From IMG/VR virus record IMGVR_UViG_3300029448_008119, positions 28,313 through 92,312 of that record: a stretch of 64,000 nt of DNA; one strand, written 5' to 3'. Every line of letters starts with the position of its first letter. The stretch's first letter is position 1. This stretch comes from a virus. Shown one piece after another: positions 24,121 through 60,807 of this stretch. Position numbers and translations under genes: made by a program. Under the pieces are notes generated by a model. That model was not told the origin of the DNA. It saw only the letters and a list, made by a program, of their open reading frames with translations, and ran no database searches.

Positions 24121-24432
24121 ATGGAGCTAGATTTTTCAGATCAAATTAAAAGTAACTCGAGTCTTTGGGAAAATATTCGCAAAAAAAAAGAGCGCATCAA
24201 GCGAGGCTCTAAAGAGAAAATGCGCAAACCTGGAGAAAAGGGTGCACCTACAAAAGAGCAAATAGAAAGAGCTAAGGGAGAAAAAAAGGTCATCGACGAG
24301 GAGAAAGACTTTAAACCGCACATGATGTATGATCCAAAAACAGGTAAAGGCTATGAAGCGAAAACCTACAAGGATCATTTAAAAATGAAAGACATGGGAT
24401 ATACCCATGAAAAGCCTAATAAAAAAGTGTAA
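24121..24432 (+). CDS. Small basic protein with MELDFS N-terminus (candidate internal head protein)
   Basis: Very Lys-rich; two short modules (LWENIRKKK..KMRKPGEKGAPT; FKPHMMYDPKTGKGY..HLKMKDMGYTH). Confidence 0.55.
   Translation: MELDFSDQIKSNSSLWENIRKKKERIKRGSKEKMRKPGEKGAPTKEQIERAKGEKKVIDEEKDFKPHMMYDPKTGKGYEAKTYKDHLKMKDMGYTHEKPNKKV
24427..24432 (+). promoter_or_regulatory. GTGTAA element formed by the last codons (GTG TAA) of the upstream gene
   Basis: 8 nt before ATG 24441. Confidence 0.6.
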
Positions 24433-24440
24433 ATCACTTT

Positions 24441-24791
24441 ATGGCAGCAGGAACCTTTAACATAACAATAGAAAAAAGAGCTTCTTTTTCGTTTGAGACT
24501 ACTTTTACGCAAGCTGATAATACGCCACTAGATCTCTCAAACAGAACTCTTTCTGGAGAAATTAGACGAAATTTTGACAATGGCCTAGAAGCAACTTTTA
24601 CCATTGCCAAAACAAATGCGTCAGGCGGAATTGCAACCATTTCTCTGTCAAAGGTAAAAACAGCCTCTTTGACGGAAAGTCCATGCACTTATGATGTATT
24701 TGCTGACCATCTCTCAGACGGAAGCTCTATAAAATTACTTACTGGATCTGTAACTATTATTAAAAATATAACTTCAGCTAACCTTATCTAA
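24441..24791 (+). CDS. Small Ig-like virion adaptor protein
   Basis: FNITIEKRASF..F....PLDLS.....EIR...IATISLS...T..L....YDV......LLTGSVTI pattern typical of fibre adaptor / BppU-N-like proteins. Confidence 0.6.
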   Translation: MAAGTFNITIEKRASFSFETTFTQADNTPLDLSNRTLSGEIRRNFDNGLEATFTIAKTNASGGIATISLSKVKTASLTESPCTYDVFADHLSDGSSIKLLTGSVTIIKNITSANLI

Positions 24792-24795
24792 TAAT

Positions 24796-27324
24796 ATGGC
24801 AGAAATAAAAGTAACAATTACGGAACAAGTTAATCCGTCTGTAACGATAAACACAATTGCTAGTTCTTCTTTATCTCAATCCCTTTCGGCTAATAGCAAT
24901 CAACTATCTTCGCTAAACACAGCTACTGGCGTGCTGTCTTCAAAACAAGGACAGCAACAACAGGCAATACTTGACCTTGAGGACGCAACTGGTCTACTTA
25001 ACACAGCAACGGGTGCACTTGATAGTAGCTTTTCGGGTTTACTGGTAGACGCCGATCTTAAGAACTTGACCGTTACTGGGGATACAACATTTAACAAAAC
25101 AGTTAATATATTTCCACCACAAGGCAGAGCAATTACTGCACGAGCTACAAATTCAAACAATGCAGCTATACAAGTTGTTTTTGAAGGCCCAACAACTGTT
25201 GGCCACGATCTTTTCAAAAAAGGCGGATTTACAAATGGATTTGGCGATGGTTCTAATCATTTTCACGACTTAACGGATATAAATCGCATCGAACAAGCTC
25301 CCGAAGGAGACGTTAAAAACTTAGAGCGTGTTCAAGAAAGATATTACGCCATAACAAATAACAACCTAGCAAACGGTAACGCGGCTTTTTGGGCTTGGCA
25401 TAGGGTAGCTAGAAAAATCAGCACGTCCAACGTAGATACTAGTAGTGCCACATTAGATGTCTCTGCTTTACAAAATTCATCTAATCGTCAGTCAGACTTT
25501 CAATTCCCTTTTAGATCTAACACAAGTCCAAGTAGAAAATCCGAAGAAATAGTTATCACCCTAAACGGCCATTCGTTTTCTGACGGAGATACCATAAGAA
25601 TGATATTTGGACAATCTTTTGAAGGGCCAATTGTAGCAGCTGGGCTTTTTGGTATAATTGTAAGCTCAACTACAAATACAATTAACGTCGAACTGTATGG
25701 AGGTAACTATAAAACAACTAGTGAAGTTCCATTAGGAACTAATCAAACTGCTCTAAGTTTTGATTTTGTTACTCTTCAATCTATTGGCACAGATACACTA
25801 GTTCAAAATAACAACAAATCCGATTTTCAACATTATGCCAATACAAATTTTACCCCAAATAGACTAAGAAACAATACAGTAAAAGCCACCTGGACATCTG
25901 ATCACGGACTCAAAAAAAACGAAACGCTAATGATAATTACCGACGGCAGGGCCAGTATTGATGGGTCTGACGGTTTAGAGATAAAACAAGGCGGTTATGT
26001 TCTTGATCCAGATCCAGACGGAGACGGTAATAGTGCTATAATAGCATATGGCCGAAGGGTTGATACAATAGATATTTCTCCGTTTTCTGCATTTGGTAAC
26101 ACTAATTGGTCAATACATAAAGGAAGTATAGACGGCATTCACGATGATACCTTAGGAGACAACTTATTTAATTTTAACGCAAATAATGTTGGTGAATATA
26201 AACAGTATCAAATTGGCCCAGGTTGTGAAACTGATGCCGATTGTATTTCAATTGGCAAAAATGTTTATAACAGAGACGCTTCTACAATTAAGATTGGTTA
26301 TGACAATCAAATGCTTGATATTAGATCTGATGGCGTTGTAGTTGATGGATCTATAAGTTTAAACGCTGGCGATATTCAGCCAGAAATTACTGCCCCAGGC
26401 ACGGGAACTGCGCTAGGCGGGTCGGTAGCAGGAAACGATATCAGAATAGATGCAGGCATGACAGCTGGTAATGGCTCAACGGGTGGTAATTTATTTCTAA
26501 ATGGAGGCAAAGCTCTTCAAGTCGCAGGTCAAACTGTTACAGATGGCAAAGTCTCAATAGGCGCCGACCATACAGAAAAGCTAGAAATTACTCCAAATAC
26601 AGATATTTTTGGAAACCTAAACGTTTCAGGCGAGATTGCGACAACTGGAATTATAAGAAGCAACAAACTTAATGTTTCTACTGGCAAGCTTTTTGTTGAT
26701 GACGATAGCACTAATTATTCAGTTAAAATTGGAGCTTATGGTCAAGGGACATTCTTTGGTAAAGATGGTGCAGAAAATGGAGCTCAATATACTTTAGCAG
26801 TAGGAACTGGAGGCAAAATATGTGAAGACCTTAGAGTACAAACTTTTAAAATTAGTGGAGATGGCTTCTTAAACTTAAATGCATCTCCCAAAACCCTTAT
26901 TGCTACTCCTGGTGCTGGCAAGGCAATTCGCGTCCACGACATTTGCTTTTATGTAGACCACAATGGAAATAAAGGCGTGGGCGCTGGAGGCTTCGATCAA
27001 GGCAGCGAAGCATGTTATAATGTTGGTATACACAGCGATACTACATATGCTTCTAATGAACAATTTTATGCAATGGCTGGACTTCCAAGAAATATACTTA
27101 ATTCAGAGCCTGGCGATTTTATATGGGCTGGAGAACCAGATGATGATTTTAGAGTTTTGCCTAATAGAGCCTTGTTGTTAAAATCACCAGCGACAAATGA
27201 AATAACAACTTCAAATACCGCCGCAAAACCAGGCGGAGCACATTACATTAAGATTAGGTATCAAATCTTAAATTTGTCTTCAGATTTTCAAAATGTTGCA
27301 AATTTAACTACAATTACTAGTTAA
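24796..27324 (+). CDS. Virion fibre / spike-like protein
   Basis: 842 aa; N-terminal coiled coil with LNTATG repeats, beta-rich Gly/Asn/Thr body, follows the adaptor gene. Confidence 0.6.
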   Translation: MAEIKVTITEQVNPSVTINTIASSSLSQSLSANSNQLSSLNTATGVLSSKQGQQQQAILDLEDATGLLNTATGALDSSFSGLLVDADLKNLTVTGDTTFNKTVNIFPPQGRAITARATNSNNAAIQVVFEGPTTVGHDLFKKGGFTNGFGDGSNHFHDLTDINRIEQAPEGDVKNLERVQERYYAITNNNLANGNAAFWAWHRVARKISTSNVDTSSATLDVSALQNSSNRQSDFQFPFRSNTSPSRKSEEIVITLNGHSFSDGDTIRMIFGQSFEGPIVAAGLFGIIVSSTTNTINVELYGGNYKTTSEVPLGTNQTALSFDFVTLQSIGTDTLVQNNNKSDFQHYANTNFTPNRLRNNTVKATWTSDHGLKKNETLMIITDGRASIDGSDGLEIKQGGYVLDPDPDGDGNSAIIAYGRRVDTIDISPFSAFGNTNWSIHKGSIDGIHDDTLGDNLFNFNANNVGEYKQYQIGPGCETDADCISIGKNVYNRDASTIKIGYDNQMLDIRSDGVVVDGSISLNAGDIQPEITAPGTGTALGGSVAGNDIRIDAGMTAGNGSTGGNLFLNGGKALQVAGQTVTDGKVSIGADHTEKLEITPNTDIFGNLNVSGEIATTGIIRSNKLNVSTGKLFVDDDSTNYSVKIGAYGQGTFFGKDGAENGAQYTLAVGTGGKICEDLRVQTFKISGDGFLNLNASPKTLIATPGAGKAIRVHDICFYVDHNGNKGVGAGGFDQGSEACYNVGIHSDTTYASNEQFYAMAGLPRNILNSEPGDFIWAGEPDDDFRVLPNRALLLKSPATNEITTSNTAAKPGGAHYIKIRYQILNLSSDFQNVANLTTITS

Positions 27325-27332
27325 AAAAATTT

Positions 27333-27620
27333 ATGTCCGAAAACCAAGATAGACTAACCCGAATAGAAGAGAAGGTTGATAAATTATCAGATGCCATTAT
27401 CTCTATAGCCAGAGCCGAAGAAAAGTTAATTCAGCTAGGTACTTTAACTGACGTACTGTTCAAAAAAATAGAGGACATGAACTCAAGGATGATGGATATG
27501 GAAAAATCCGTAGCTGAAACAAAAGCTTTTATGAGTGGTTTTAATAAAGTTACTTGGGTTTTTATTAGTGGATTATTGACGACCGTAGCTGCTGCTATAG
27601 TATATAAACTCTGGGGTTAA
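27333..27620 (+). CDS. Coiled-coil protein with C-terminal transmembrane helix (holin / XhlA-like)
   Basis: RLTRIEEKVDKL heptads and WVFISGLLTTVAAAIVY segment. Confidence 0.55.
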   Translation: MSENQDRLTRIEEKVDKLSDAIISIARAEEKLIQLGTLTDVLFKKIEDMNSRMMDMEKSVAETKAFMSGFNKVTWVFISGLLTTVAAAIVYKLWG

Positions 27621-27635
27621 AATTTTTTAAAAAAA

Positions 27636-27641
27636 GTGTAA
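27636..27641 (+). promoter_or_regulatory. GTGTAA putative late promoter element heading the 27653-33028 gene run
   Basis: 11 nt before ATG 27653. Confidence 0.7.
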
Positions 27642-27652
27642 TACTATATATC

Positions 27653-28567
27653 ATGGAACTAGATTTTTCAGAAGAACTTCAAGCTGGCAGAGCAGGACCT
27701 AAAAGTGCCGCTCAAACCCCAGCTAAACCAGAAGAAAGAAAGAAGGGCTCTTCTGTAAATGAGCCTGGTTCCGCTGCTGGCGCAATTACCTTTAGTGAAA
27801 AAGTCACAACAGCTCTCAAAAACAAAGTAAAAAAGCACAACGAAAAACACTCCAAAAAGGTAACTTTAGGAATGTTGAAAAAAATATATCGTAGGGGTGC
27901 GGGAGCCTTTTCCACTTCACATAGACCAGGCCAAACCAGAGGAAGCTGGGCGATGGCTAGAGTAAATATGTTTCTAAAGATGGTTCGCGGCGGTAAGGTA
28001 AAGAAATCTTATAGAGCAGCAGATCAAGATGTAGCAAAAGCTTCAGAAGAAGAACTCCTTAACTTAGCAGACGTATTTAGTGAGTGGAGTCCAGGAGATT
28101 TCTCAGAAGCTAGAGATATTTCAAATGTACAATTCGCTTTAGCTAGAATTGATTTATTAGGCGCAGGTGCAACTCCAACAGAAATGTTAGAGGGAGATGC
28201 ATCCCAAGATTTTATATTAGAAGCTAAAGAAAAAAAAACTTTAAATAAACCATTTAGACTTCCAAGCGGTTCGAAAAAAAAGTTTGGAGTTTATGTTAAA
28301 AACGAAAAAGGTAACGTTGTTAAGGTAACCTTTGGCGATCCAAACATGGAAATTAAAAGAGACGACCCAGAGCGTCGTAAATCATTTAGAGCTAGACATC
28401 AATGCGATACAAATCCTGGCCCCAAATATAAAGCACGATATTGGTCTTGTAAACAATGGAGAGCTGGTAAAAAAGTAGAAGGGTCTGAAGAACTTGAATC
28501 TGATGCCTCACTTCTTCTTATAGATCCTAAATTAGCTGAAGCTCCAACTATTCAAGAAAAAGAATAG
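27653..28567 (+). CDS. Modular basic protein with MELDFS N-terminus (candidate internal head protein)
   Basis: Basic modules (KIYRRGAGAFSTSHRPG..WAMARVN; LNKPFR..VTFGDPNM..RRKSFRARHQC..RYWSC) separated by acidic linkers. Confidence 0.55.
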   Translation: MELDFSEELQAGRAGPKSAAQTPAKPEERKKGSSVNEPGSAAGAITFSEKVTTALKNKVKKHNEKHSKKVTLGMLKKIYRRGAGAFSTSHRPGQTRGSWAMARVNMFLKMVRGGKVKKSYRAADQDVAKASEEELLNLADVFSEWSPGDFSEARDISNVQFALARIDLLGAGATPTEMLEGDASQDFILEAKEKKTLNKPFRLPSGSKKKFGVYVKNEKGNVVKVTFGDPNMEIKRDDPERRKSFRARHQCDTNPGPKYKARYWSCKQWRAGKKVEGSEELESDASLLLIDPKLAEAPTIQEKE

Positions 28568-28568
28568 A

Positions 28569-28757
28569 ATGACTGGTCACTTTGCCACTGGTTCCACATT
28601 ATACCAAGAATTTTTGGCGGAAAGAGAAGAGATCTTAAAACATAAATGGATTGAGTCAGAAAAAGCTGGCAAAGACATAGGATTTGAAAGGGCTTTATTA
28701 ACTTGGGTAACTGGATACCGAGTTGAGTGGAAAAAAGACCGAGGCAGTTTAAAATAA
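28569..28757 (+). CDS. DUF4032-like small protein
   Basis: LYQEFLAEREEILKHKWIESEKAGKDIGFERALLTW, recalled as a small protein common in Verrucomicrobiota. Confidence 0.7.
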   Translation: MTGHFATGSTLYQEFLAEREEILKHKWIESEKAGKDIGFERALLTWVTGYRVEWKKDRGSLK

Positions 28758-28763
28758 ATCCTA

Positions 28764-29021
28764 ATGGAACAATTCTTAGGTTTGGTATATACAATATGCT
28801 TTAGTACTTGCATTTGGCCGCAAATAATTAAAAGCGTAAAAACAAAAAAAGTAGAAGATGTTAGCATCTCTCTCTTTATTCTTTCTATTGTCGGATACGT
28901 GTCCGCTATATCTTACACTATACTAAGGGTAGGCTTTGATTTTTGGTGGTTGATAAATTATTGTTTGAGCTTATTATCAGCTATAATCATGGTTATACTA
29001 TGGTTTAGATATAAGAAATGA
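28764..29021 (+). CDS. SemiSWEET / PQ-loop three-helix transporter
   Basis: 85 aa, three hydrophobic helices, WPQIIKSVKTKKVEDVS PQ-loop motif. Confidence 0.85.
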   Translation: MEQFLGLVYTICFSTCIWPQIIKSVKTKKVEDVSISLFILSIVGYVSAISYTILRVGFDFWWLINYCLSLLSAIIMVILWFRYKK

Positions 29022-30106
29022 AAATACCAATTTATAAACCCTGGATAACTAAAACAGAAAAAAATATACTGCAAGATGCCATAGACTCAGGGTGGTTTTC
29101 TTCTATTGGTAAATATATAAATTTATTTGAAGATAAATTTAGTGAATTTATTGAATGCAAATATTCTGTAGCATTGAATAACGGTACCTCTGCTTGTCAT
29201 TTATCTTTATTGAGTAGTGGTATTAAAAGCGGAGACGAGGTCATAGTACCAGCATCAACTTTTATTGCTTGTCCAAATTCAGTTAAATATTGCGGCGCAG
29301 TACCCGTAATTGCTGATGTAGATAAAGATACTTGGAACATATCTCTTAATGAAATAAAAAAGAAAAAAACAGAAAAAACAAAAGCTGTTTTTCTGGTTCA
29401 TATGCTTGGTAACCCCTGTGATCAAGAAATATATGACTGGTGTGAAGAAAACAATATTCTATGTATAGAAGATGCTTGTGAATCTATAGGAGCCTCTTTG
29501 AATGAAAAAAAAACTGGTACCCTAGGTAGCTGTGGGGCGTTTAGCTTTTTTGGCAATAAAAATCTTACAACAGGAGAGGGCGGAATGTTGACAACTAACG
29601 ACAAAACAATCTTTCAAAAAGCCAAGTATTTAAGGGGCCAAGCCCAAGACTCAACATATCGTCACGGAGACATAGGGTACAATTACAGAATGACGAATAT
29701 ACAAGCAGCTTTGGGCTATAGTCAAATGTTGAGGATTCAAGAAATTATGTCCGAAAAAGATAGAGTCTTTAATTGTTATAAAAAAAATCTAGAATCTCTT
29801 GTTGGTCAGGATTCATTTAAAATTCAAAAAACTACTGAAAATTCAAAACACGCCAATTGGATGTTTGCTATATATTCCAAGAAAAAAGATAATATTAAAA
29901 ATGTTTTAAATAAAAATGGAGTAGACACAAGGCCAATGTTCTACCCCGTAAACTCCATGAATCCTTATCTGTCTGAGGAGGTTCATCGCGTAGCTGGTGA
30001 TTTAAGCTCTAGGGTAATTATGCTTCCGTCATATCCTGAATTAAAAGATAGCCAGATTGAGAAAATATGCGAATTAGTAAAGGATTCTAATGGAAAAAAT
30101 ATCTAA
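29018..30106 (+). CDS. DegT/DnrJ/EryC1/StrS PLP sugar aminotransferase, perosamine synthase-like
   Basis: NNGTSACHL, IEDACESIG, FSFFGNKNLTTGEGGM, GYNYRMTNIQAA, LPSYP. Confidence 0.92.
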   Translation: MKIPIYKPWITKTEKNILQDAIDSGWFSSIGKYINLFEDKFSEFIECKYSVALNNGTSACHLSLLSSGIKSGDEVIVPASTFIACPNSVKYCGAVPVIADVDKDTWNISLNEIKKKKTEKTKAVFLVHMLGNPCDQEIYDWCEENNILCIEDACESIGASLNEKKTGTLGSCGAFSFFGNKNLTTGEGGMLTTNDKTIFQKAKYLRGQAQDSTYRHGDIGYNYRMTNIQAALGYSQMLRIQEIMSEKDRVFNCYKKNLESLVGQDSFKIQKTTENSKHANWMFAIYSKKKDNIKNVLNKNGVDTRPMFYPVNSMNPYLSEEVHRVAGDLSSRVIMLPSYPELKDSQIEKICELVKDSNGKNI

Positions 30107-30758
30107 AACACTAATTAACAATTATGTCTTAGATTTGGACGGTATACACATCTTAGAATGTGGCGCTTATGATGGCTCAGAAACAAAAAGCCTTAGAGGT
30201 AAGCATAACTGTTGGTATTTAGAGCCCGACAAAGACTTATTTAATAAGTTAAACCTAGATACAGATAATTGTCTAAACTTAGCTTTATCAGATAAAGACG
30301 GTGAAGCTGAACTTAAGGTAACTAACATTCCTGGTAATTCTAGCATAGGTCATAACGCCAAACATCTTGAAGATATAAGAATAGTTGATACAGTAAAGAT
30401 TAATACAATATCATATAAGACTCTCCTTGATAAACTCCAGATAAAAAAAATCAACATTCTTATATTAGATGTCGAAGGCCATGAAGATATTATATTAAAT
30501 AATATTTTTTCAAGTTTAGATCAGGATAGTTGGCCAGACGTATTATGCGTTGAGTGTGGATATGATTGGAAGTCCAGGCAAAAAATTATTCTAGATGCTG
30601 GATATAGTCAGGATTTTTACTCTTACAACAATTGTTTTTTTAGTAATGGAAAACTTCAAATAAATAAAGAGTCCGTGAAAAAAACAAATTTAAACAACCA
30701 GAATTTTATTTTTCAAAAAAAATTAATTTATGAAAATGATTGTCAGGAATATAAATAA
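30090..30758 (+). CDS. FkbM-family SAM methyltransferase
   Basis: LECGAYDG, LEP, NLALSD, LILDVEGHE, VLCVE. Confidence 0.85.
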   Translation: MEKISKTLINNYVLDLDGIHILECGAYDGSETKSLRGKHNCWYLEPDKDLFNKLNLDTDNCLNLALSDKDGEAELKVTNIPGNSSIGHNAKHLEDIRIVDTVKINTISYKTLLDKLQIKKINILILDVEGHEDIILNNIFSSLDQDSWPDVLCVECGYDWKSRQKIILDAGYSQDFYSYNNCFFSNGKLQINKESVKKTNLNNQNFIFQKKLIYENDCQEYK

Positions 30759-31155
30759 ACAAAATAAAGATTTAAAAATCTTTGTGGATAATTTATCAAT
30801 ATCATCTGATACTTTTACTTATTTTAAATCAAGATGTTTCGACGCATTAGATAATCACACACTTACAGCCTTGGGTTATGTTAAGAACAGTCCAGTAGCT
30901 TATGGCCATTTAGACAAGGATGGCGATACTGTTTGGTTGGGTATTTGTGTCGTAGGCTCGGAAGTTGGTAAGGGTTACGGAAAGAAAATGATGGAGTACT
31001 TAACTGAATATGCCGATAAAAATAAAATAAATTTAAAATTATCAGTGCATAGATTTAATATACAAGCAGTAAACCTATACAAAAAATTTAATTTTATAAA
31101 AACATCAGAGTCTGATAAAAGTTTTTATTTTACCAGGCCTTATTTAAACAATTAA
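30730..31155 (+). CDS. GNAT N-acetyltransferase
   Basis: WLGICV...GKGYGKKMM acetyl-CoA motif; N..AVNLYKKFNF. Confidence 0.88.
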   Translation: MKMIVRNINKQNKDLKIFVDNLSISSDTFTYFKSRCFDALDNHTLTALGYVKNSPVAYGHLDKDGDTVWLGICVVGSEVGKGYGKKMMEYLTEYADKNKINLKLSVHRFNIQAVNLYKKFNFIKTSESDKSFYFTRPYLNN

Positions 31156-31164
31156 TCACACAAT

Positions 31165-31980
31165 ATGAAAAATATAGCAGTATGTTCTCTTTTCAAGGAT
31201 TCCGTCTCTTGGCACGGAATTCAAACAGATCAAGTTAATAAGTTTTTTGAAACCATGGACACGCAAAAACAGAATTTAAGCGAAAACTTTGATATATCTA
31301 TAAGTGTTTTAGAAAACAATTCTGCCGACGATACAGAAAAACACATTAGAGCTAATCAAAAAAAATACGAGAATGTTCATTTTTTAAAATTAAGTGATAG
31401 TTTAAACCTAGGGGAAGTAAGGTCTGTCTCATCCTCAGAAAGAATTAATGCTCTCGGTTTTTTGGCTAATTTGCTTTTTTCTTTTGCCAAGAATTTTAAT
31501 TCAGAGTATATTTTATGGACAGAGTCAGATTTAATTTTTCCACAAAAAGATACAATAAATCAGTTGGTTGAAAAAATGGAATCTGATAAAAGCATTTCGG
31601 CAATTTCCCCAGTTATATTTTTTGATGCCGATATGTCGGAAAACGGCAACTTCAAATGTGACAGTAATGGCAAACTTTCAAAGGGCTATAAATATTTTTA
31701 TGACACATGGGCATATGAAAACAAAAACACTTCTACCTGGACAAACAACCCCCCATACAATATAGAATATGCGCTCACAAAAGAAAGATATATTGAAATG
31801 AATGCTGTTGGCTCCTCTTGTCTGTTTAGGACCGCTGATGTTAAAGATATAAGTTTTGATGATCAAGCCTTCAAAGGAATATGTTCTAAAATTATTTCAA
31901 ATGGTGGTAAAATATTTTTAGATAAAGAACTAGAAATATTACATCCAACAAATTACTATATGAAACAAAGACTTATTTAA
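31165..31980 (+). CDS. Glycosyltransferase, GT-A fold (GT2/Anp1-like)
   Basis: VLENNSADDT, YILWTESDL (DxD-like), FYDTWAY, EMNAVGSSCL, C-terminal ILHP. Confidence 0.72.
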   Translation: MKNIAVCSLFKDSVSWHGIQTDQVNKFFETMDTQKQNLSENFDISISVLENNSADDTEKHIRANQKKYENVHFLKLSDSLNLGEVRSVSSSERINALGFLANLLFSFAKNFNSEYILWTESDLIFPQKDTINQLVEKMESDKSISAISPVIFFDADMSENGNFKCDSNGKLSKGYKYFYDTWAYENKNTSTWTNNPPYNIEYALTKERYIEMNAVGSSCLFRTADVKDISFDDQAFKGICSKIISNGGKIFLDKELEILHPTNYYMKQRLI

Positions 31981-31981
31981 T

Positions 31982-33028
31982 ATGAAAAAAGTAATAATTA
32001 CAGGAGTAACGGGTCAAGTTGGATCCTATATGGTTGACTATCTTTTAGCAAATACTGATTATAAAATCTACGGGGCAATTCGTAGACTCAGTGTTCCAAA
32101 TCATAGAAACATTGAACATGTTGACTCAGACAGGTTTGAATTTATCGAAATGGACTTGGGTGATGAGCATAGCATTTTTGCTATAATTCAAGACATTAAA
32201 CCAGATTATTTTATAAATTTTGCAGCTAATTCTTTTGTTGGCGGCAGTTGGCACATGCCAGTTAATCATTTTGATACGAACGCTCTTGGTGTCATGCGAC
32301 AGCTTGAAGCTATTCGTAAAATTTGTCCAAAGTGTCGTTATTATAACGCAGGATCTTCAGAAGAATTTGGCGATGTAGCATATAGCCCACAAGACTTAAA
32401 CCACCCGCCAAGACCAAGAAGCCCATATGGAGCATCTAAAGTTGCCGCTAGGCAGATAGTTAAGGTTTGGAGAGATTCTTATAACTTATTTGCAATCCAA
32501 GGTTATCTTTTTAATCATGAATCAGAACGTCGTGGTGAAGAATTTGTAACTCGAAAAATAACAAAAAATGTAGCACGAATCGCGAAATCTATACAACAAG
32601 GAAATGACGATTTTGAACCTCTCGAACTTGGTAATGTAGACGCTAAGAGAGACTGGAGTCATGCAGAAGACTTTGTAGAAGCGGTTTGGCTAATGTTAAA
32701 CGAAGAAAGCCCGAAGGATTATCTACTTGCTTCTGGAGAAACTCACAGCGTTAGAGAGTTTGTTGAGCTTGCTTTTGATAATGCTGGCTTAGAAGGTTAT
32801 TGGTCTGGCGAAGGAGTTGATGAAGTTTACAAACTAAGAGGAGAAGTCCTCGCAGATATTACTCTAATGAAAGTAAATCCTAATTTTTATCGCCCAGCAG
32901 AGGTTGATTTGCTTCTTGGAGACCCTTCTGAGGCAGAAAAAGAATTAGGCTGGAAGAAAAAGGTTGACTTTAAATCATTGGTATGCAGAATGTGCGAACA
33001 TGACTTTAAAGAAATTAACGCCACATAG
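31982..33028 (+). CDS. gmd: GDP-mannose 4,6-dehydratase
   Basis: ITGVTGQVGSY, PRSPYGASK, FNHESERRGEEFVTRKIT, GNVDAKRDW, RPAEVDLLLGD. Confidence 0.95.
   Translation: MKKVIITGVTGQVGSYMVDYLLANTDYKIYGAIRRLSVPNHRNIEHVDSDRFEFIEMDLGDEHSIFAIIQDIKPDYFINFAANSFVGGSWHMPVNHFDTNALGVMRQLEAIRKICPKCRYYNAGSSEEFGDVAYSPQDLNHPPRPRSPYGASKVAARQIVKVWRDSYNLFAIQGYLFNHESERRGEEFVTRKITKNVARIAKSIQQGNDDFEPLELGNVDAKRDWSHAEDFVEAVWLMLNEESPKDYLLASGETHSVREFVELAFDNAGLEGYWSGEGVDEVYKLRGEVLADITLMKVNPNFYRPAEVDLLLGDPSEAEKELGWKKKVDFKSLVCRMCEHDFKEINAT
32964..32991 (+). promoter_or_regulatory. Promoter-like TTGACT-N16-CAGAAT inside gmd
   Basis: 8 nt before ATG 33000; marks the start of the replication block. Confidence 0.45.
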
Positions 33029-33356
33029 AAGGCGACAGCTAGCAATCCAAAAGCTAATCGAAGTCCCTAAAACCCAAAAAAGATTGTTTTGGGCTAGGGA
33101 AATGAAGCTATTGAAAGATCTAGAAGCTAGATATTCTCTAGACTTTTTGGAAATTGTTACTTTTCCAAAGAAATACGACAGCTTAGCTTACTTAGTATCT
33201 AAAGAACTTAAATCGACAATGGATAGAAAATGGCGCAATTTTAACTTTAAAGTTGACTTATCTAAGTATGAGACTATTGTTTTAGGAGAAAAAACTGGAA
33301 AAGATTATATTCCCAGTGATAATAAACCAAAAAATACAAAAGATTTATTTAAATGA
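33000..33356 (+). CDS. Hypothetical basic protein
   Basis: ATG 33000 preferred to TTG 32964; ATGA overlap with recA. Confidence 0.6.
   Translation: MTLKKLTPHRRRQLAIQKLIEVPKTQKRLFWAREMKLLKDLEARYSLDFLEIVTFPKKYDSLAYLVSKELKSTMDRKWRNFNFKVDLSKYETIVLGEKTGKDYIPSDNKPKNTKDLFK
33253..33280 (+). promoter_or_regulatory. Promoter-like TTGACT-N16-TATTGT upstream of recA
   Basis: Matches the recurrent class; embedded in coding sequence. Confidence 0.4.
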
Positions 33357-34465
33357 GCGATAAAGATTCAGAAATATTAGAAAAGTTTCTTAAAGACAAA
33401 AAGGGACAGCATTATAACTTCGAAGAGTCGATTGATTACAAGGCATCAAGCGGATCTCTCCAACTAGACCTAAACCTTAACGGTGGCTTTGGGCCAGGAT
33501 TACACAGGTTTGTAGGTATGAATGAGGGCGGTAAAACTTCAGCAGCTCTCGAGGTTATGAAAAATATGTTAAATACACAGGAACAAGGCAAAGGTTTCTA
33601 CATTAAGGCAGAAGGTCGTCTTTCAAATGAGATGGTGGCTCGTTCTGGAGTCAAGTTTGTGTATGATGCAAAAGACTGGGTTGCAGGCACCTGCTTCGTT
33701 TTTGAAAGCAATATTTATGAGGTTGTAGTTGATGCAATCAAGACCCTAGTCGACCAAAACGAAGATAAGCACCGCTACTGCTTTATATTAGACTCAGTAG
33801 ATGGCCTAATCTCACAGCAAGATATAGATAAATCCTTTTACGATTCCAACAAAGTAGCTGGCGGTGCGGTCATCGCAGCCAACTTTATGAAGAGAATGTC
33901 TATCTCTCTTGCAAAAAGGGGTCATATGGCCATCTTCATTAGCCAGGTGAGGGCAGACATCAAACTAGACCCCTACTCCAAAGCTCCGATACGTCAGACG
34001 TCAGCAACGGGTGGTAACGCACTTTTGCACTTTGCTAACTATATCATCGAGTTTGAGCCTAGATTCAAGTCTGATATGATTTTACAAGACCCAGCAAAAA
34101 AGCAACCAGATCCCAAAACCAATCCAATTATTGGCCACTGGGCAAAAGCTACCATTAAGAAGTCCCCAAATGAGAAGACAAATAACACAATTCCCTACCC
34201 CATTAGATACGGTAGGACTGGAGGCAAGTCCGTTTGGGTAGAGAAGGAGCTTGTCGACTTATTATACATGTGGGAGTTTGTCACCAAAAAGGGCGCTTGG
34301 ATCACTATTGGAGAAGAGCTAAAAGAGCTTGTACAGGATGTTGTACAAGATTTACCAGAAAAAGTCCAAGGAGAAGCTAATTTATTTAAGATGGTGGAAG
34401 AAAACGAAGAGCTTTCTAAGTTTTTAATTAATTATTTTAAATCTAATATTGGCGAATTAGTTTGA
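33353..34465 (+). CDS. recA: RecA/UvsX-like recombinase
   Basis: SSGSLQLD..LNGG, Walker A GMNEGGKT, FILDSVD, FISQVR, TGGNALLHFA, KKGAW. Confidence 0.9.
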   Translation: MSDKDSEILEKFLKDKKGQHYNFEESIDYKASSGSLQLDLNLNGGFGPGLHRFVGMNEGGKTSAALEVMKNMLNTQEQGKGFYIKAEGRLSNEMVARSGVKFVYDAKDWVAGTCFVFESNIYEVVVDAIKTLVDQNEDKHRYCFILDSVDGLISQQDIDKSFYDSNKVAGGAVIAANFMKRMSISLAKRGHMAIFISQVRADIKLDPYSKAPIRQTSATGGNALLHFANYIIEFEPRFKSDMILQDPAKKQPDPKTNPIIGHWAKATIKKSPNEKTNNTIPYPIRYGRTGGKSVWVEKELVDLLYMWEFVTKKGAWITIGEELKELVQDVVQDLPEKVQGEANLFKMVEENEELSKFLINYFKSNIGELV

Positions 34466-34863
34466 AATTTTTAACCTTATATGGCAAAGAGAAGCCGCTT
34501 AGGAATCCACATAAGTACAAAATTAAGTGGAATGGCAAATGTCGTAGTAAATTTCAAGCAGAAGTAAGAAAATACTTATATAAGTATTGGAAATATGATG
34601 CCGTATACGAGGAATTTAGGGTTATAGGAACCCAATTATCCTTAGATTTCTACAATCATAACAGAAAAATAGCTATTGAAGTACAAGGGGCCCAACATTT
34701 ACGGTTTGTAAAACATTTTCATAAGACAAGGGCTAATTTTGTTCGTCAAATACGCAGAGACAATAAAAAAATAGAGTTCTGCGAGATGAATGACATAAAA
34801 TTAATAGAAATTTATCCAGACGACGAATTATCAGAAGATTTTTTCGCAAACCTTTTGGGGTAG
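34462..34863 (+). CDS. Vsr/DUF559-like endonuclease
   Basis: LDFY...IAIEVQGAQH...RDNKK..FCEMNDIKLIEI. Confidence 0.8.
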   Translation: MKFLTLYGKEKPLRNPHKYKIKWNGKCRSKFQAEVRKYLYKYWKYDAVYEEFRVIGTQLSLDFYNHNRKIAIEVQGAQHLRFVKHFHKTRANFVRQIRRDNKKIEFCEMNDIKLIEIYPDDELSEDFFANLLG

Positions 34864-44318: not shown

Positions 44319-44326
44319 TCAACTAG

Positions 44327-44350
44327 GGCGGTAGAAATACCGCCTTTTTT
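44327..44350 (+). terminator. Intrinsic terminator
   Basis: GGCGGTA-GAAA-TACCGCC-TTTTTT. Confidence 0.9.
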
Positions 44351-44364: not shown

Positions 44365-45579
44365 ATGGCTATCAAAGGGAAAGAAATATATCTCAATAAT
44401 TATTTTTCGGTGGACATTAGGCCCGACCAAAGAGATGCGGAAATATCAGAATTCGAACAAGAGTTGATTAAATCGTACCTTGAAAATATACTCCCAGATA
44501 TAGAACAAGCCGAAAGCACAATTGAATTAGTTAATTCAAATTTTTTTTATGAAAGCTATTCTTTTTTATCCGATAATAAAAAATATTTATTAAAAATCAG
44601 TTTAGATCCAGACAATAAAAAACTTTCTACTGAAAAAAAAGCTTTAGATTCTGTAAGTGATTTAATATCACCCGAAGTTATAAATTATACAAACGACGAA
44701 GACTCTAAAATTGAATTTATGCTTTGTAGTTGGGAAAATGGCGAAAATTTTGATTTTTTTGGCATAGATGAACTTTTACATAATTTAGGAACTCTTGTGT
44801 GTAATTTAGATTTTGTGCATGAATCAGATTCTTCAGATATGATGTCTTTTGAAGATAAACTTATTGAAAACGAATCAATTTTAGAAACTATTGAAGCTGT
44901 AGGTGAAAAAGAAAAATCTATTTTTGAAAAATTAATAGATTTAGACATAGATAATCTTAAACATATTTTTTCAAGACTTAAACGAGTTTTTGAAGAAAAA
45001 TATTCGGAAGATATAACTGTGCTGTGCCACTCTAATTTAAAAAAAAGTAATATTTTATATCAATCAGAATATATAAAGTTTATTAATTTTGAAAACTCTC
45101 ATAAAGCAGATATTTATTACAGCCTTCTAAAAGTCGTTAATAATCTAAACCTTTTTAAATCAGCTAAAAAGGTCAGTTCTTTTTTAACAAAATACCACTC
45201 TAATTCTAGATTAGTTAATCACCTTTCTTATGAAGAATTTTTAAAAAATTATGAAGAAAAAAAAGAAACAAATCAGCTTTTGCTTTTTCAAGATATATTA
45301 CATAAGGTACTTTTTCATTTTAACGCTTATGGAGCCTTTTATAAATTAGAGAATTTGACGAGCTGTACTGATTTATATAATAACCTTAGACCGACAGTTC
45401 AAAAATATTTTTCTGATCATGTTGAAGGTTTAGATAAATTATTTTACACTTGTATTACAAGTGTTAAAACTTACGACATCGACGAATTAAATAAAATAGC
45501 TGGGGCAATTGAAGAAGATGAAGAAGATACAGATGAATATTCAAATCAAGGAATAGAAGAATATCAAGCTGAAGATTAG
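44365..45579 (+). CDS. APH/choline-kinase-fold protein with degenerate catalytic motifs
   Basis: KYLLKI, EKKAL, SWENG, CHSNLKKSNIL (for HGDL...N), FINFE (for IDFE). Confidence 0.7.
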   Translation: MAIKGKEIYLNNYFSVDIRPDQRDAEISEFEQELIKSYLENILPDIEQAESTIELVNSNFFYESYSFLSDNKKYLLKISLDPDNKKLSTEKKALDSVSDLISPEVINYTNDEDSKIEFMLCSWENGENFDFFGIDELLHNLGTLVCNLDFVHESDSSDMMSFEDKLIENESILETIEAVGEKEKSIFEKLIDLDIDNLKHIFSRLKRVFEEKYSEDITVLCHSNLKKSNILYQSEYIKFINFENSHKADIYYSLLKVVNNLNLFKSAKKVSSFLTKYHSNSRLVNHLSYEEFLKNYEEKKETNQLLLFQDILHKVLFHFNAYGAFYKLENLTSCTDLYNNLRPTVQKYFSDHVEGLDKLFYTCITSVKTYDIDELNKIAGAIEEDEEDTDEYSNQGIEEYQAED

Positions 45580-46094: not shown

Positions 46095-47776
46095 TGAAAA
46101 AAGTTCTTTTCCATTCTAATTCAGCCAAGGCTTTTACTGGATTTGGTAAAAATGCAAAAAATATTTTACGTTATTTATATAAGACCAATAAATACGAAAT
46201 TATTGAATTAGCAAATGGTATGCAATGGGGTCACCCATCTCTTTCATTAAGGCCTTGGAAGGCTCAGGGCTCTTTGCCCAACAATCCTTCCCTAGTAAGA
46301 GAAATGAATTCCGATCAGTCCAAGTCTAGGATGGGGTTATATGGAGCATTTACTATTGATCAGGCCATAAAAGAATATAAACCAGATATTTACATAGGGT
46401 GTGAAGACATTTGGGCTTTTGGAAATTATTGGGAAAAACCTTGGTGGGATAAAATCAATAATATGATTTGGACGACCCTCGACAGTCAGCCAATACTCCC
46501 TCAAGCCTTAGAAGCGGCACCTAAAACTAAAAACTTTTACGTCTGGGCATCTTTTGCAGAAAGAGATATGAAAGAATTGGGCCACGATCATGTAAATACT
46601 TTGCACGGAACAGTAAACACAGAAGACTTTTATAAAATTAGCGATCTCGATAAGAGAAAAATAAGAAGCAAGTTTAATCTTTCCGATGAATTTATTATTG
46701 GCTTCGTATTTAGAAACCAACTAAGAAAAAGCGTACCTAATTTACTTGAAGGCTTTAAAGTATTTAAAAAAGATTGTCCTAAAGCTAAATTATTATTGCA
46801 TACGCATTGGAGTGAAGGTTGGGACATACCAAGACTTTTAAAAGAAAAAGGTATAAACAATGAAGATATTCTAACTACTTATTTTTGCTCTTCTTGTAAA
46901 AGTTATGGCATAGCTCCCTTTTGTGGACAAGAACAAACTTGCCCATTTTGTGGCTCCGAAAAGACTTTTAGTACTACAAATACTAAAAATGGAGTAGATG
47001 AATCTCAGTTAAATGAAATTTATAACATTATGGATGTTTATTGTCATCCATTTACTAGCGGCGGTATGGAAATACCAATCTTTGAAGCAAAAATGACTGA
47101 GCTTATAACATTAGTCACAAATTATTCTTGCGGAGAAGATTCTTCTAGTTCCGAATGTGGAAGCTTCCCGCTTGATTGGTCAGAGTACAGAGAGCCAGGA
47201 ACTCAATTTATTAAAGCTTCAACTTACCCATCTAGCATAGCCAAACAACTTAAAAAAGTTTATAATATGAAGCCAGAAAAAAGGCTTCAAATGGGCAAAA
47301 AAGGAAGAGAGTGGACTATTGAAAACTATTCTACAGAGTCGGTCGGTAAAAAACTAGAGAAAATTATAGACGAAATGCCCGATATAGATTACAATTTTGA
47401 TTGGGATAAAGACGAGAAAAGTATAGATTTAAAAGATTTGTTAGATGAGGGTAAGCGGATAGCTATTGTTATGCCCCAATCGGCTGGCGATTTATTGGCT
47501 ATTAACTCCTTAATTGACAATCTGCAAGATCTTTATGAAGATCATGACATTTATGTCTTTACTATGCCCACCTTCTTTCCTTATATAGAAGACAATCCCA
47601 AAGTTCATAAGGTTTTAACATATTCTCCGCAAATAGACAATTCCCATGCCCTGGAAGGTGCTGGAAATAACGAGGGCCTTTTTGAATTAGCGTTTTTCCC
47701 TTTTTATGGAACTCAAAAATTTCAAAATTATCATCATAACGGATTAGATAAAACACAGTATAAATTATATGAGTAG
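46094..47776 (+). CDS. GT4-like glycosyltransferase with zinc-ribbon insert and C-terminal GT9-like N-lobe
   Basis: TGFGKNA, FRNQLRK, CSSC...CPFC, YNIMDVYCHPFTSGGMEIPIFEA; tail IAIVMPQSAGDLL...NPKVHKV. Confidence 0.8.
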   Translation: MKKVLFHSNSAKAFTGFGKNAKNILRYLYKTNKYEIIELANGMQWGHPSLSLRPWKAQGSLPNNPSLVREMNSDQSKSRMGLYGAFTIDQAIKEYKPDIYIGCEDIWAFGNYWEKPWWDKINNMIWTTLDSQPILPQALEAAPKTKNFYVWASFAERDMKELGHDHVNTLHGTVNTEDFYKISDLDKRKIRSKFNLSDEFIIGFVFRNQLRKSVPNLLEGFKVFKKDCPKAKLLLHTHWSEGWDIPRLLKEKGINNEDILTTYFCSSCKSYGIAPFCGQEQTCPFCGSEKTFSTTNTKNGVDESQLNEIYNIMDVYCHPFTSGGMEIPIFEAKMTELITLVTNYSCGEDSSSSECGSFPLDWSEYREPGTQFIKASTYPSSIAKQLKKVYNMKPEKRLQMGKKGREWTIENYSTESVGKKLEKIIDEMPDIDYNFDWDKDEKSIDLKDLLDEGKRIAIVMPQSAGDLLAINSLIDNLQDLYEDHDIYVFTMPTFFPYIEDNPKVHKVLTYSPQIDNSHALEGAGNNEGLFELAFFPFYGTQKFQNYHHNGLDKTQYKLYE

Positions 47777-48866
47777 TATAACAGAAGTTTATGCCAAAGA
47801 TCTTGGCGTCAAAATAGGTGGTAAGGCCAAAATTACAGATCATTTTTGCCCGATTCCAGAAGAAAAATATATAACATTCTTTAAGGATGACCCAGATCAA
47901 GTTAATCAATATGACCATTGGGAAATTGTTCTGTCTTTATTAAATCCAATTTTTAAAAAACATAAAATAAGAGGTTTAGAAATATTTGATAATAAAAATC
48001 AAACTGTTAAGCAAAATAATTTTTTAATTAAAAACTCTGAATTATATTTAGGAAGCGCAAATCATTTTATGCTAACTGCAGATATTTATGAAAAGCCATC
48101 TGTTTGTCTTTTGCCTAATCTATATTCTAACAATATAAATCACAAATATTGTAAAATTATTACCCCAGATTTCTCTTTAATTAAGCCCTCGTTTTCTTCA
48201 CAGGAGGCTAAAAAAAGAATTAATGAAATATTGCCAGAAAATATCGTACAATCGGTTTTAGATAAATTAAACATTGAAGAAAAAATAAAATTTAAAACCA
48301 TAAGAATTGGCTCTGCCTACAATCAAGATATTGTAGACATTGTACCTAACTTTTTCTCTGCGTATAAAGATTTAATAAATAAAAATATAAACATTAAATC
48401 AGATATTCATTTTGACAAACAGAATATTATTAATTGGTGCAGACATTCAAATGTAAATCTTTTTCTAGATCAGATTATTGATGACGAGATGATTGATGCT
48501 TGTACGAATTTAAAACAAGTGGTATTCAACTATCATAACAAACATAAAGAGTTAGACCTCACAAATTTTATTAAAAAATTAAAAAATAATAGAATAAACT
48601 TTGTTATCCAGGTCCAAGATAAAGAAATCTTTCCCGATGTCTGTGTTAATTATTTTGATAACAATGTCATCCAAAAAAACAATACTGAACCAACTAATAT
48701 TCCAGACAAGGAGTGCAAATTCATTTCTAAAAAAAGATTTATATCAGATGGAAATTTATTTAATTCACAGTTTTCTTCTAAAACGCTTGACAATTCTAAT
48801 AAATTTGTTTATGATGAAGTCTCAAAATTAGAAATAGAAAGCTTATACCTATATGTCGAAGAGTAA
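47769..48866 (+). CDS. GT9-like C-lobe-containing protein
   Basis: KYITF...YDHWEIV...FLIKNSELYLG......A....KPSVCL resembles the heptosyltransferase C-terminal half. Confidence 0.5.
   Translation: MSSITEVYAKDLGVKIGGKAKITDHFCPIPEEKYITFFKDDPDQVNQYDHWEIVLSLLNPIFKKHKIRGLEIFDNKNQTVKQNNFLIKNSELYLGSANHFMLTADIYEKPSVCLLPNLYSNNINHKYCKIITPDFSLIKPSFSSQEAKKRINEILPENIVQSVLDKLNIEEKIKFKTIRIGSAYNQDIVDIVPNFFSAYKDLINKNINIKSDIHFDKQNIINWCRHSNVNLFLDQIIDDEMIDACTNLKQVVFNYHNKHKELDLTNFIKKLKNNRINFVIQVQDKEIFPDVCVNYFDNNVIQKNNTEPTNIPDKECKFISKKRFISDGNLFNSQFSSKTLDNSNKFVYDEVSKLEIESLYLYVEE
48787..48815 (+). promoter_or_regulatory. Promoter TTGACA-N17-TATGAT upstream of 48853
   Basis: Near-consensus, embedded in coding sequence. 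Confidence 0.55.
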
Positions 48867-57388: not shown

Positions 57389-57776
57389 CCAAAAACTCCT
57401 TTAACATTATTACACCTTTTTCTGATCTTTGGAAATTGGGCATATCAAATAAAGCAAACCTCTCTGTGACCAAAGAGTATATTAAGAACGGATAAAGACA
57501 GTTTTTTGAATTTTCTATATCGTATTCAGATGGCTCCTCTCTTCCGCTTACATGAGTGTGGAATATAGCCAACAAATCGCCATTTAGTTTAACTTTCAAA
57601 AAATCCGCTGGATTAATTAAAAACACATCATCATCATTTGAATGATTTTTGGCGGCCTTAAAAATTAATTCACCGTCTTTATATAGAACAAAACCGCAAA
57701 CTTCTTTTCCTAAGTCCGTATTGGCGTATTCAATTAAATCTTTTTTAAAATTATCTGTTTTTGGGTTGGTATGCAT
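57381..57776 (-). CDS. Tail assembly protein K-like, JAB/MPN domain only
   Basis: EVCGFV...AIFHTH...PSEYD; no NlpC/P60 domain; ATG 57776. Confidence 0.88.
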   Translation of the reverse strand: MHTNPKTDNFKKDLIEYANTDLGKEVCGFVLYKDGELIFKAAKNHSNDDDVFLINPADFLKVKLNGDLLAIFHTHVSGREEPSEYDIENSKNCLYPFLIYSLVTERFALFDMPNFQRSEKGVIMLKEFLDD

Positions 57777-60784: not shown

Positions 60785-60807
60785 ATTATTGTAAGTGACA
60801 TATTATT
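60767..60807. repeat. 17-bp tandem duplication (TATTATTGTAAGTGACA x2.4) over a start codon
   Basis: Exact copies at 60767-60783 and 60784-60800, partial 60801-60807. Confidence 0.95.

Follow-up and report, generated by a model that had tools for sequence, protein, structure and literature searches.

What would a tailed phage do with a pathway for a rare deoxyamino sugar encoded among its DNA-metabolism genes, and onto what would it place the product? The question is raised by a tightly packed run of genes in a 64,000-nucleotide (nt) stretch of IMG/VR virus record IMGVR_UViG_3300029448_008119 (hereafter the window; bases 28313-92312 of a 92,312-bp contig with a CheckV completeness of 67%, leaving 33% of the genome unseen), which comes from an uncultured marine tailed phage. 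Family searches of the window proteins against Pfam, PHROGs and NCBIfam recovered, in the order given by an initial annotation of this DNA and on the plus strand, the six genes that it had named: a SemiSWEET-like membrane protein, a pyridoxal phosphate (PLP)-dependent sugar aminotransferase of the DegT family (Per), an FkbM methyltransferase, a GNAT acyltransferase, a glycosyltransferase (GT) of the GT-A fold, and Gmd. Our reading, to which we give about an even chance of being right, is that the run encodes a branch pathway leading from host guanosine diphosphate (GDP)-mannose to a modified amino sugar, and that this sugar is most likely attached to one or more virion proteins of the phage itself.

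The first two chemical steps carry the strongest evidence. Gmd matched PF16363 at 356.6 bits (cut-off 27), its closest PDB matches were all GDP-mannose 4,6-dehydratases (GMDs; E 2e-84), and the motifs GVTGQVGS (the GxxGxxG NAD(P) site), SSEE, YGASK and LFNHES can be read in it. Against the NCBIfam equivalog TIGR01472 it scored 341 bits, under the cut-off of 415, with a dTDP-glucose dehydratase as the next family at 108 bits; by these comparisons it is a divergent member of the GMDs. The closest PDB relatives of the aminotransferase were the Caulobacter perosamine synthetases 3bn1 and 3dr4 (E 4e-80), and its PLP lysine lies in an FSFFGNK motif, which Caulobacter Per 3bn1 has at the aligned position, and is not replaced by a ColD-type histidine, while its best NCBIfam match, the LegC family, reached 325 bits, under the cut-off of 420. 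Specificity for GDP-4-keto-6-deoxymannose would follow from the PDB relatives, the match to LegC, a GDP-sugar family, and the adjacency to Gmd. The solved relatives, the motifs and the PLP lysine bear out the chemistry first proposed for this pair, and conversion of GDP-mannose via the 4-keto intermediate to GDP-perosamine (GDP-4-amino-4,6-dideoxymannose) is a well-supported prediction. Because no ManC-type nucleotidyltransferase was found in the part of the phage genome seen, the GDP-mannose precursor would be host-derived.

Two further genes would tailor this sugar. From adjacency and precedent only, the GNAT (weak PseH, 4e-5, and RimI matches; no informative relative in a PDB sequence search) is the presumptive N-acetylase of the 4-amino sugar, and the FkbM protein (PF05050 at 46.7 bits against a cut-off of 22.7, TIGR01444 at 46.5 against 37.7; nothing informative in a PDB sequence search) its presumptive O-methylase. 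The acetylase belongs to the GNAT fold family PF00583 and not to the left-handed beta-helix, hexapeptide-repeat enzymes of PerB type; it may do the same job as PerB though it lies outside that family.

Related loci, found by searches with 7-sequence alignments of the GT-A protein, distinguish a conserved core from a variable part of the run. Two relatives, seen as locus pairs L004/L006 and L005/L007 (GT-A 73% identical), have the order ribonucleotide reductase (RNR)-small, RNR-large, a 95-amino-acid (aa) XhlA-like gene, DUF5824, a small open reading frame (ORF), ThyX, SemiSWEET, Per and GNAT, followed by GT-A, Gmd, a basic ORF, UvsX, HNH, a small ORF, DnaB, primase, exonuclease and polymerase. 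They differ from the window phage in lacking FkbM, in carrying ThyX inside the run and in having an intein in Gmd. The ThyX gene (L005:7581-8258; PF02511, E 7e-52) stands between the small ORF and SemiSWEET in the same tight run. The intein, 346 aa long and of LAGLIDADG type (in the Gmd genes L005:10815-12899 and L004:7783-9867), is inserted exactly between E180 and S181 of the LFNHES active-site motif; the window Gmd has none. In L008, L010 and L011 (GT-A 33-42% identical), GT-A and Gmd are followed by UvsX, HNH and DnaB, with Per and GNAT in front of GT-A in L010 and L011 and an FkbM gene between GT-A and Gmd in L008. Per, GNAT, GT-A and Gmd occur together in L007, L008, L010 and L011, that is, down to 33-42% GT-A identity, and the order Gmd-ORF-UvsX-HNH-DnaB is kept in the same four loci; GNAT lies beside Per and GT-A in L007, L009 and L011, the L009 contig, which keeps these three genes, ending just past GT-A.

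FkbM had been taken as a fixed part of the pathway, a role that the comparison does not sustain. It is absent from L004-L007 and L009-L011, occupies a different position in L008, and is bypassed by a metagenomic contig (run X4, record 18; ~96% identical) that bridges 29974 to 30769 with 154 nt between. Because the relatives and this population variant lack it, we regard FkbM as a strain-variable accessory gene, and the predicted core of the cassette as Per, GNAT, GT-A and Gmd. Other contigs join ~29022-29026 to 31975-32381 across short flanking sides, which suggests that variants exist with SemiSWEET next to Gmd and without the Per-through-GT-A segment. Lower contig depth over 24.8-27.5 kb and 29.1-31.7 kb was set aside, as depth cannot rank genes. 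Marine metagenomes of several studies, dated 2014-2024, repeatedly contain DNA nearly identical to that of the window phage. Among phage isolates, the cluster DNA had no meaningful match, the GT-A protein no match by tblastn, and the aminotransferase an identity of 38% at most.

The enzyme most informative about the target is the GT-A protein. On its own it gave a borderline Pfam GT2 match (24.7 against a cut-off of 23.3) and nothing informative in a PDB sequence search, and an exhaustive HMMER search yielded ~170 representative clusters of related proteins of 240-260 aa. Invariant in a 69-sequence alignment were D55, T57, D122 (in an E120-S121-D122 motif), D180, G216 and H260; an AlphaFold2 model built on this alignment had a predicted local distance difference test score of 94.8, as against 37, which is unusable, with the 7-sequence alignment. 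GT2 was matched by 42 of the 69 family members, CAP59 by 38 and Anp1 by 22, and a GDP-linked donor fits because CAP59 and Anp1 are GDP-mannose-dependent. The human collagen galactosyltransferase COLGALT1 led the fold matches (E 1.5e-12), followed by Mimivirus R699, SpsA, Mnn9-GDP, RmlT, ppGalNAc-T and LH3, with a Foldseek probability of 1.00 for COLGALT1, SpsA and Mnn9; three of the top matches, COLGALT1, LH3 and ppGalNAc-T, are protein O-glycosyltransferases. Among viral models the closest fold matches were glycosyltransferases of giant viruses and uncultured phages. The protein has no transmembrane (TM) segment, and the 92 kb encode no GT-C-like polytopic protein and none larger than the three-TM PQ-loop protein of the run.

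The relatives of this protein are viral almost throughout (45 viral loci against 1 bacterial locus), and a DegT aminotransferase gene is present in 33 of the 46 loci fetched. The cassette lies inside a capsid-to-tail operon in one lineage (L021, L023, L031, L032, L042, L044, L045 and L046), where portal, head-morphogenesis, scaffold and major-head genes flank it on one side and Neck1 and tape-measure genes do so on the other. Because the GT-A family sits inside a structural operon in this lineage, a virion target is favoured. The initial annotation had likewise preferred a virion (or host-surface) target over DNA; the preference holds, not for the reason of timing that it gave but on the GT-A/DegT pairing and the capsid-to-tail lineage.

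The same loci bear on a second glycosyltransferase, the GT-B encoded at 46094, which in the window phage is 14 kb away from GT-A. Its homologs (E 1e-9 to 7e-18) adjoin GT-A homologs or sit close upstream of them in seven distant phage loci, being part of the cassette in six of the eight loci of the capsid-to-tail lineage (L021, L023, L031, L042, L045 and L046) and also in L030. GT-B 46094 is a probable partner of GT-A, and the repeated neighbourhood suggests a shared target. Both GT-B genes, at 18180 and 46094, had initially been placed among early or replication genes with possibly another target. For the former the placement stands, as it sits with a sigma-like gene and a deoxynucleoside monophosphate (dNMP) kinase; the latter belongs to a separate GTGTAA-headed block after a terminator and next to tail genes, and its homologs near GT-A speak for a shared and not a separate target.

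Tailoring genes also differ among the distant loci. ATP-grasp, class-I methyltransferase and GT-B genes are added beside GT-A/DegT in L014-L019, L026 and L008, and hexapeptide-acyltransferase and GT4 genes appear instead in L047 and L048 (sites of an LNS2-like 102-aa protein and of the ATP-grasp, methyltransferase, acyltransferase and GT4 genes: L008:96-1171, L016:4613-7999, L017:4116-4637 and L048:8630-10307). Such genes suggest alternative N-acyl decorations and an interchangeable tailoring of amino sugars across phages. We tentatively propose, at somewhat less than even likelihood, that the cassette is a branch of a widespread, undescribed phage module, made of DegT and the GT-A family and often a 46094-type GT-B, that coats the virions of many environmental tailed phages with 4-amino-4,6-dideoxy sugars; in the marine lineage it would have moved into the replication operon and gained Gmd, which would make it independent of host keto-sugars, with N-acyl (GNAT, ATP-grasp or hexapeptide) and strain-variable O-methyl (FkbM) tailoring.

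In the mechanism that we propose, Gmd would convert host GDP-mannose to GDP-4-keto-6-deoxymannose, the Per-type aminotransferase would make GDP-perosamine from it, and the GNAT would most likely N-acetylate the latter; in this strain the accessory FkbM protein would O-methylate either the nucleotide sugar or the transferred residue. The soluble GT-A enzyme, probably together with GT-B 46094, would transfer the sugar to the acceptor, most likely one or more virion proteins. The genes would be transcribed in a long coupled unit that starts at the GTGTAA element and takes in UvsX.

The extent of that unit was examined at both ends. Genes within the run abut or overlap, with intergenic gaps of -29 to +9 nt, and a tight run downstream of GTGTAA at 27636 without a convincing internal plus-strand terminator was confirmed. 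Its content is larger than first described, as a DUF5824 gene and a 62-aa ORF that went unmentioned precede SemiSWEET, and it does not end at 32964: tight coupling continues through the ORF at 33003-33356, UvsX and HNH to 34863, where the next GTGTAA lies. UvsX and HNH are joined to the run by 4-nt overlaps, which amounts to translational coupling with the sugar genes. The basic ORF behind Gmd, for which the ORF finder gave a TTG start at 32964, more probably starts at the ATG at 33003, and it has orthologs between Gmd and UvsX in L007 (75%) and L011 (58%). The TTGACT at 32964 falls within the last part (3' end) of Gmd; a TTGACG-16-TAGTAT match is also found at 27576-27603, just upstream of the operon head, and sigma-70-like matches in the region are at chance level (62 found against 50.6 +/- 8.7 expected from shuffled sequence). 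The Per-FkbM-GNAT-GT-A segment has the lowest GC content of the neighbourhood (29-33%; FkbM 29%), against 38-41% for Gmd and UvsX.

Whether the operon is late depends on what GTGTAA denotes. The bare hexamer occurs as often as expected by chance (25 observed, 26 expected). Because GTGTAA-N7-11-ATG is enriched, with 17 occurrences in the 92-kb contig against 3.2 +/- 2.0 expected (Markov-1 simulations, maximum 10), GTGTAA near start codons appears to be a real promoter-like element, and the short spacing implies near-leaderless mRNAs. Sites include window positions 3564, 12989, 21258, 24106, 24427, 27636, 34863, 44351 and 59919 and, on the minus strand, 453, 1512, 58766 and 61743. The hexamer and its upstream A/T tract are kept before the orthologous gene in L005 (position 6458). 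GTGTAA precedes the tape measure, tail genes, RNR-small and the ORF ahead of DnaB; at RNR-small it is combined, in the window phage and L005, with a TTGACT/TTGACA -35 element (TTGACT 16 nt upstream of GTGTAA in the former), and in L005 it stands before RNR-small, the XhlA-like gene, DUF5824, the pre-DnaB ORF and the DnaE polymerase gene. An element that heads RNR-small, the pre-DnaB ORF and, in L005, DnaE is not the late marker for which it had been taken; a shared promoter-like motif does not by itself make an operon late. A minus-strand gene for a 185-aa sigma-like protein, beside the dNMP kinase gene, gave a weak Sigma70_r2 match and a match to phrog_351 (E 1e-9). By analogy with T4 gp55 this protein is a candidate for recognising the GTGTAA promoters that have no -35 element, and such a role would make the GTGTAA genes a phage-specific class, middle or late.

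Genome context points the same way. Because the only strong plus-strand terminator between 20.5 and 50.5 kb is that at 44325-44346, the sugar genes would share a transcriptional domain (21274-44346, terminator-bounded) with the RNR and replisome genes, and the cluster itself lies between the RNR and the DnaB/primase/DnaE genes without an intervening terminator. Coupling to UvsX and HNH, this shared domain and the ThyX gene inside the run of the relatives run counter to the description of the cluster as late-expressed, at assembly time. Late expression of the operon is unsupported, though also not disproved; the arrangement indicates that the cluster is expressed together with DNA-metabolism genes and gives no hint of a late operon of its own.

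This setting is the first of several points that weigh against a virion target. Here and in close relatives the cassette lies outside the structural module, between RNR (and ThyX) and UvsX/DnaB/primase/DnaE, and glycosyltransferase genes enter the structural module only in the distant L021-L046 lineage; as its GT-A proteins are 20-30% identical, the capsid-to-tail placement counts as about one independent observation. Among the GT-A fold matches, enzymes that have polysaccharide or teichoic acid as substrate (SpsA, Mnn9 and RmlT) reach scores like those of the protein-modifying ones, and fold similarity does not fix the acceptor. The substrates of the GNAT and FkbM enzymes are assigned by adjacency and precedent, and the characterised perosamine N-acetylases (PerB) have a left-handed beta-helix fold and are not known to include GNATs. 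No acceptor protein or sequon was identified on a contig that is itself incomplete, and a collagen-type acceptor, considered on account of the COLGALT1 and LH3 folds, was rejected, the genome having no G-X-Y or collagen-like repeats. Excess [ST]G dipeptides were seen in the J-like protein (50961-56804, minus strand; 58 against 33, z 5) and in the products of 50053-50964 (minus strand, z 3.1) and 60806-61729 (minus strand, z 2.7), whereas the tape measure, the proteins of 1379 and 842 aa, the upstream head-region ORFs and the replication enzymes showed none; as a sequon, [ST]G or [ST]GS was discarded because its distribution is too uneven and of a kind common in beta-rich tail proteins.

A cassette expressed with DNA-metabolism genes suits a function during and not after replication, and one such function would be host-envelope remodelling, in which a perosamine derivative is added to a host glycan (the O-unit of lipopolysaccharide, capsule, S-layer, or a periplasmic or outer-membrane glycoprotein) and blocks superinfection or the adsorption of progeny to debris. 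Perosamine, like its N-acyl and O-methyl derivatives, is a classic constituent of O-antigens (V. cholerae O1, E. coli O157, Brucella, Caulobacter), which makes the predicted product O-antigen-like; the low-GC Per-FkbM-GNAT-GT-A segment, bridged by metagenomic contigs, resembles a variable glycan island; and the gene for the membrane protein overlaps the start of the aminotransferase gene. That PQ-loop protein might act as a flippase or facilitator for a polyprenyl-phosphate sugar, MPDU1, needed for the use of dolichyl phosphate mannose, being a PQ-loop protein too. We hold remodelling to be a serious rival, though a less likely one at somewhat better than one chance in four, on the following grounds: GT-A is soluble and no GtrB-like TM anchor, GT-C, ligase, Wzx or Wzy was found in the 92 kb; only the closest relatives have SemiSWEET together with the sugar genes, and in L009 it is missing beside Per-GNAT-GT-A; and the GT-A family was found almost only in viral loci and enters a capsid-to-tail operon in one lineage. 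A Gtr-like model, in which GT-A would take the part of GtrB and SemiSWEET that of the flippase, was not adopted in view of the missing TM segment and the missing GT-C. The same genomic domain, with RNR, UvsX, the replisome genes, a dNMP kinase and, in relatives, ThyX, would also suit DNA hypermodification, in which GT-A, the GT-Bs or both put the amino sugar on a modified base to evade restriction; known phage DNA glycosyltransferases use both GT-A and GT-B folds and often lie beside polymerases and helicases (bioRxiv 10.1101/2023.12.21.572611). Known DNA glycosylation, however, depends on a hydroxylated base, the product of a ThyA homolog or of a 5mYOX/TET enzyme that in some cases is joined by a C5-methyltransferase (bioRxiv 10.1101/2023.12.21.572611 and others), and the term GDP occurs 0 times in that preprint, which describes no GDP-sugar donor. 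Because no route to a hydroxylated base was found, with no ThyA (PF00303), ThyX, TET/JBP (PF12851; a search without a positive control) or C5-methyltransferase (PF00145) gene in the 92-kb contig of this 67%-complete genome and no ThyA domain (PF00303) in the records of three relatives, a DNA target is disfavoured. The ThyX of the relatives is of the flavin-dependent thymidylate synthase type, of which we know no hydroxymethylase, and the fold matches of GT-A are not to JGT or TarP; we consider DNA modification very improbable. Scarcely more credit goes to the idea that these are auxiliary metabolic genes (AMGs) serving host metabolism or small molecules without a specific phage target, or that the substrate of the GNAT and FkbM enzymes is not the sugar. 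Reports of viral AMGs commonly include gmd and other nucleotide-sugar genes for which no target is known (PMC10980836), and the assignment of the two tailoring enzymes by adjacency leaves room for it; the glycosyltransferase, however, is a dedicated one, always beside an aminotransferase across many phage lineages, and the gene set matches the validated Mimivirus logic for 4-N-acetyl-viosamine (Vio4NAc) step for step (PMC10117803).

Table 1. Features of the sugar-gene run and of the regions around it (window coordinates).
Feature	Position	Strand	Match or remark
Tape-measure gene	3579-9410		
Sigma-like protein, 185 aa	19620-20177	-	
103-aa ORF, LtfC-like protein and 842-aa protein	24121-27324		phrog_1084 (LtfC-like)
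XhlA-like coiled-coil protein, 95 aa	27333-27620		phrog_937
GTGTAA promoter-like hexamer	27636..27641	+	11 nt upstream of the ATG (27653) that opens the run
DUF5824-domain protein, 304 aa, first gene	27653..28567	+	Pfam PF19141 36.9 bits; phrog_7595
62-aa protein	28569..28757	+	weak DUF4032-like match, E 2e-4, below cut-off
PQ-loop/SemiSWEET-like membrane protein, 85 aa	28764..29021	+	PF04193 41.6 bits (cut-off 22); 3 TM
GDP-perosamine-synthase-like PLP aminotransferase (DegT), 362 aa	29018..30106	+	PF01041 E 9e-103
FkbM-family S-adenosylmethionine methyltransferase, 222 aa	30090..30758	+	PF05050, TIGR01444
GNAT acyltransferase, 141 aa	30730..31155	+	PF00583 E 7e-10
Soluble GT-A glycosyltransferase, 271 aa	31165..31980	+	borderline GT2 match; fold model
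Gmd, 348 aa	31982..33028	+	PF16363 E 2e-106
Conserved basic protein, ~117 aa	33003..33356	+	overlaps Gmd end and UvsX start
UvsX/RecA-like recombinase	33353-34465	+	phrog_97 E 8e-35
HNH endonuclease	34462-34863	+	phrog_559
Strong intrinsic terminator	44325-44346	+	9 pairs, 5 G-C, T run
GT-B glycosyltransferase, 560 aa	46094..47776	+	phrog_2170 E 8e-22; PF00534
Lambda-like J/I/K/L tail genes	50961-58752	-	

The membrane protein of the run is a PQ-loop protein by its Pfam score and its three hydrophobic segments, as in a single PQ-loop bundle, and its Atlas neighbours are PQ-loop clusters, one of them 75% viral; against NCBIfam SemiSWEET_2 it scored 29.4 bits, under the cut-off of 80. An 85-aa ORF upstream of Per in L009 is unrelated to it. 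It may be an importer, a flippase helper or an unrelated small membrane protein. The DUF5824 protein at the operon head has Atlas neighbours that are 96-100% viral and is 76% identical in L006/L007; its family is virus-only, and nothing places the gene in the sugar pathway. In L007 the 62-aa protein is 67% conserved.

Directly upstream of the operon head lies the gene for the 95-aa coiled-coil protein, which has a C-terminal TM segment, weak XhlA-like (phrog_937, 'hemolysin') and DUF7201 matches and 84% conservation in relatives; it may be lysis-associated. Before it, a 103-aa ORF, the gene for a 116-aa LtfC-like protein and that for an 842-aa protein without a family match form a trio that is missing in L004/L005, where RNR-large directly precedes the XhlA-like gene. 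It looks like an inserted, variable module within the nucleotide-metabolism region and is possibly fibre-related. Two ORFs without a family match (44365-45579 and 47769-48866) flank GT-B 46094; their GC content of ~27% is the lowest in the window (35% overall), and they may be recently acquired accessory genes. PDB sequence searches with the 842-aa protein and these two ORFs gave nothing informative. The lambda-like tail genes, together with an outer-membrane cassette recorded in the initial annotation, suggest a Gram-negative host; the replicative polymerase is of DnaE type, and no lysogeny genes were found in the part of the phage genome seen.

Viral cassettes of a comparable kind are already known from giant viruses and mycobacteriophages. 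The nearest validated system is the viosamine cluster of Mimivirus, which comprises the R141 4,6-dehydratase, the L136 PLP aminotransferase, the L142 N-acetyltransferase/GT, the R132 methyltransferase and the GT2 proteins L137-L140 (PMC10117803, PMC9614988) and decorates the virion fibrils with 2-O-methyl-4-N-acetyl-viosamine (2OMe-Vio4NAc; PMC10117803). Both systems combine virus-encoded nucleoside diphosphate (NDP)-hexose 4,6-dehydration, C4 transamination, N-acetylation, O-methylation and GT-A transfer towards a 4-acetamido-4,6-dideoxyhexose, and R699 of Mimivirus is among the PDB fold matches of the phage GT-A. They differ in that Mimivirus uses a UDP-gluco (viosamine) and the phage a GDP-manno (perosamine) route, in the acetylase (a small stand-alone GNAT here, the N-terminal domain of L142 there) and in the methyltransferase (FkbM-type here, whereas R132 has been compared with MycE); moreover, the cassette here belongs to a tailed phage of a bacterium, and its target is a predicted one. 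We regard the phage cassette as the GDP-manno counterpart of the Mimivirus cluster, assembled from different acetylase and methylase families.

The best phage precedent for the proposed target is virion glycosylation in mycobacteriophages. O-glycosylation of their virions (Che8, Corndog and Myrna) was reportedly described by Freeman et al. in Cell Host Microbe in 2023. Phage-encoded soluble glycosyltransferases, the feature shared with the window phage, modify the mycobacteriophages' own capsid and tail-tube subunits, as cited in passages of PMC12619734 and PMC10877033; those passages report no nucleotide-sugar synthesis by the mycobacteriophages themselves. The host type differs as well. Bacterial GDP-N-acetylperosamine O-antigen pathways (Gmd, Per/RfbE and PerB), such as those of Caulobacter, E. 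coli O157 and V. cholerae O1 (with a terminal 2-O-methyl group in Ogawa), share Gmd, Per and the class of N-acylated, O-methylated products. Unlike them, the phage uses a GNAT and not a PerB-type enzyme, has no undecaprenyl-phosphate priming transferase, Wzx/Wzy, ABC transporter or ligase, and encodes a GT-A whose family is found almost only in viral loci. GtrABC serotype conversion likewise pairs a phage GT2-fold enzyme with an adjacent small membrane protein, but the GT-A here lacks the TM anchor of GtrB, the three-TM PQ-loop protein is not GtrA, no GtrC or GT-C is present, and lysogeny genes are absent from the part of the window phage seen.

To our knowledge, self-glycosylation of phages and viruses has so far been shown experimentally only for mycobacteriophages and giant viruses. 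If the sugar is on virions, it would be extended to abundant marine phages, and with a rare sugar made by the phage itself. The pairing of GT-A and DegT in many viral loci offers a concrete, clonable enzyme pair, and the strain-level turnover of tailoring genes (FkbM here; GNAT, ATP-grasp and hexapeptide acylases in relatives) suggests that the glycan is under diversifying selection. Such a coat would bear on how stable the phage is and how it adsorbs, on grazing or immune recognition, and on what marine dissolved organic matter is made of.

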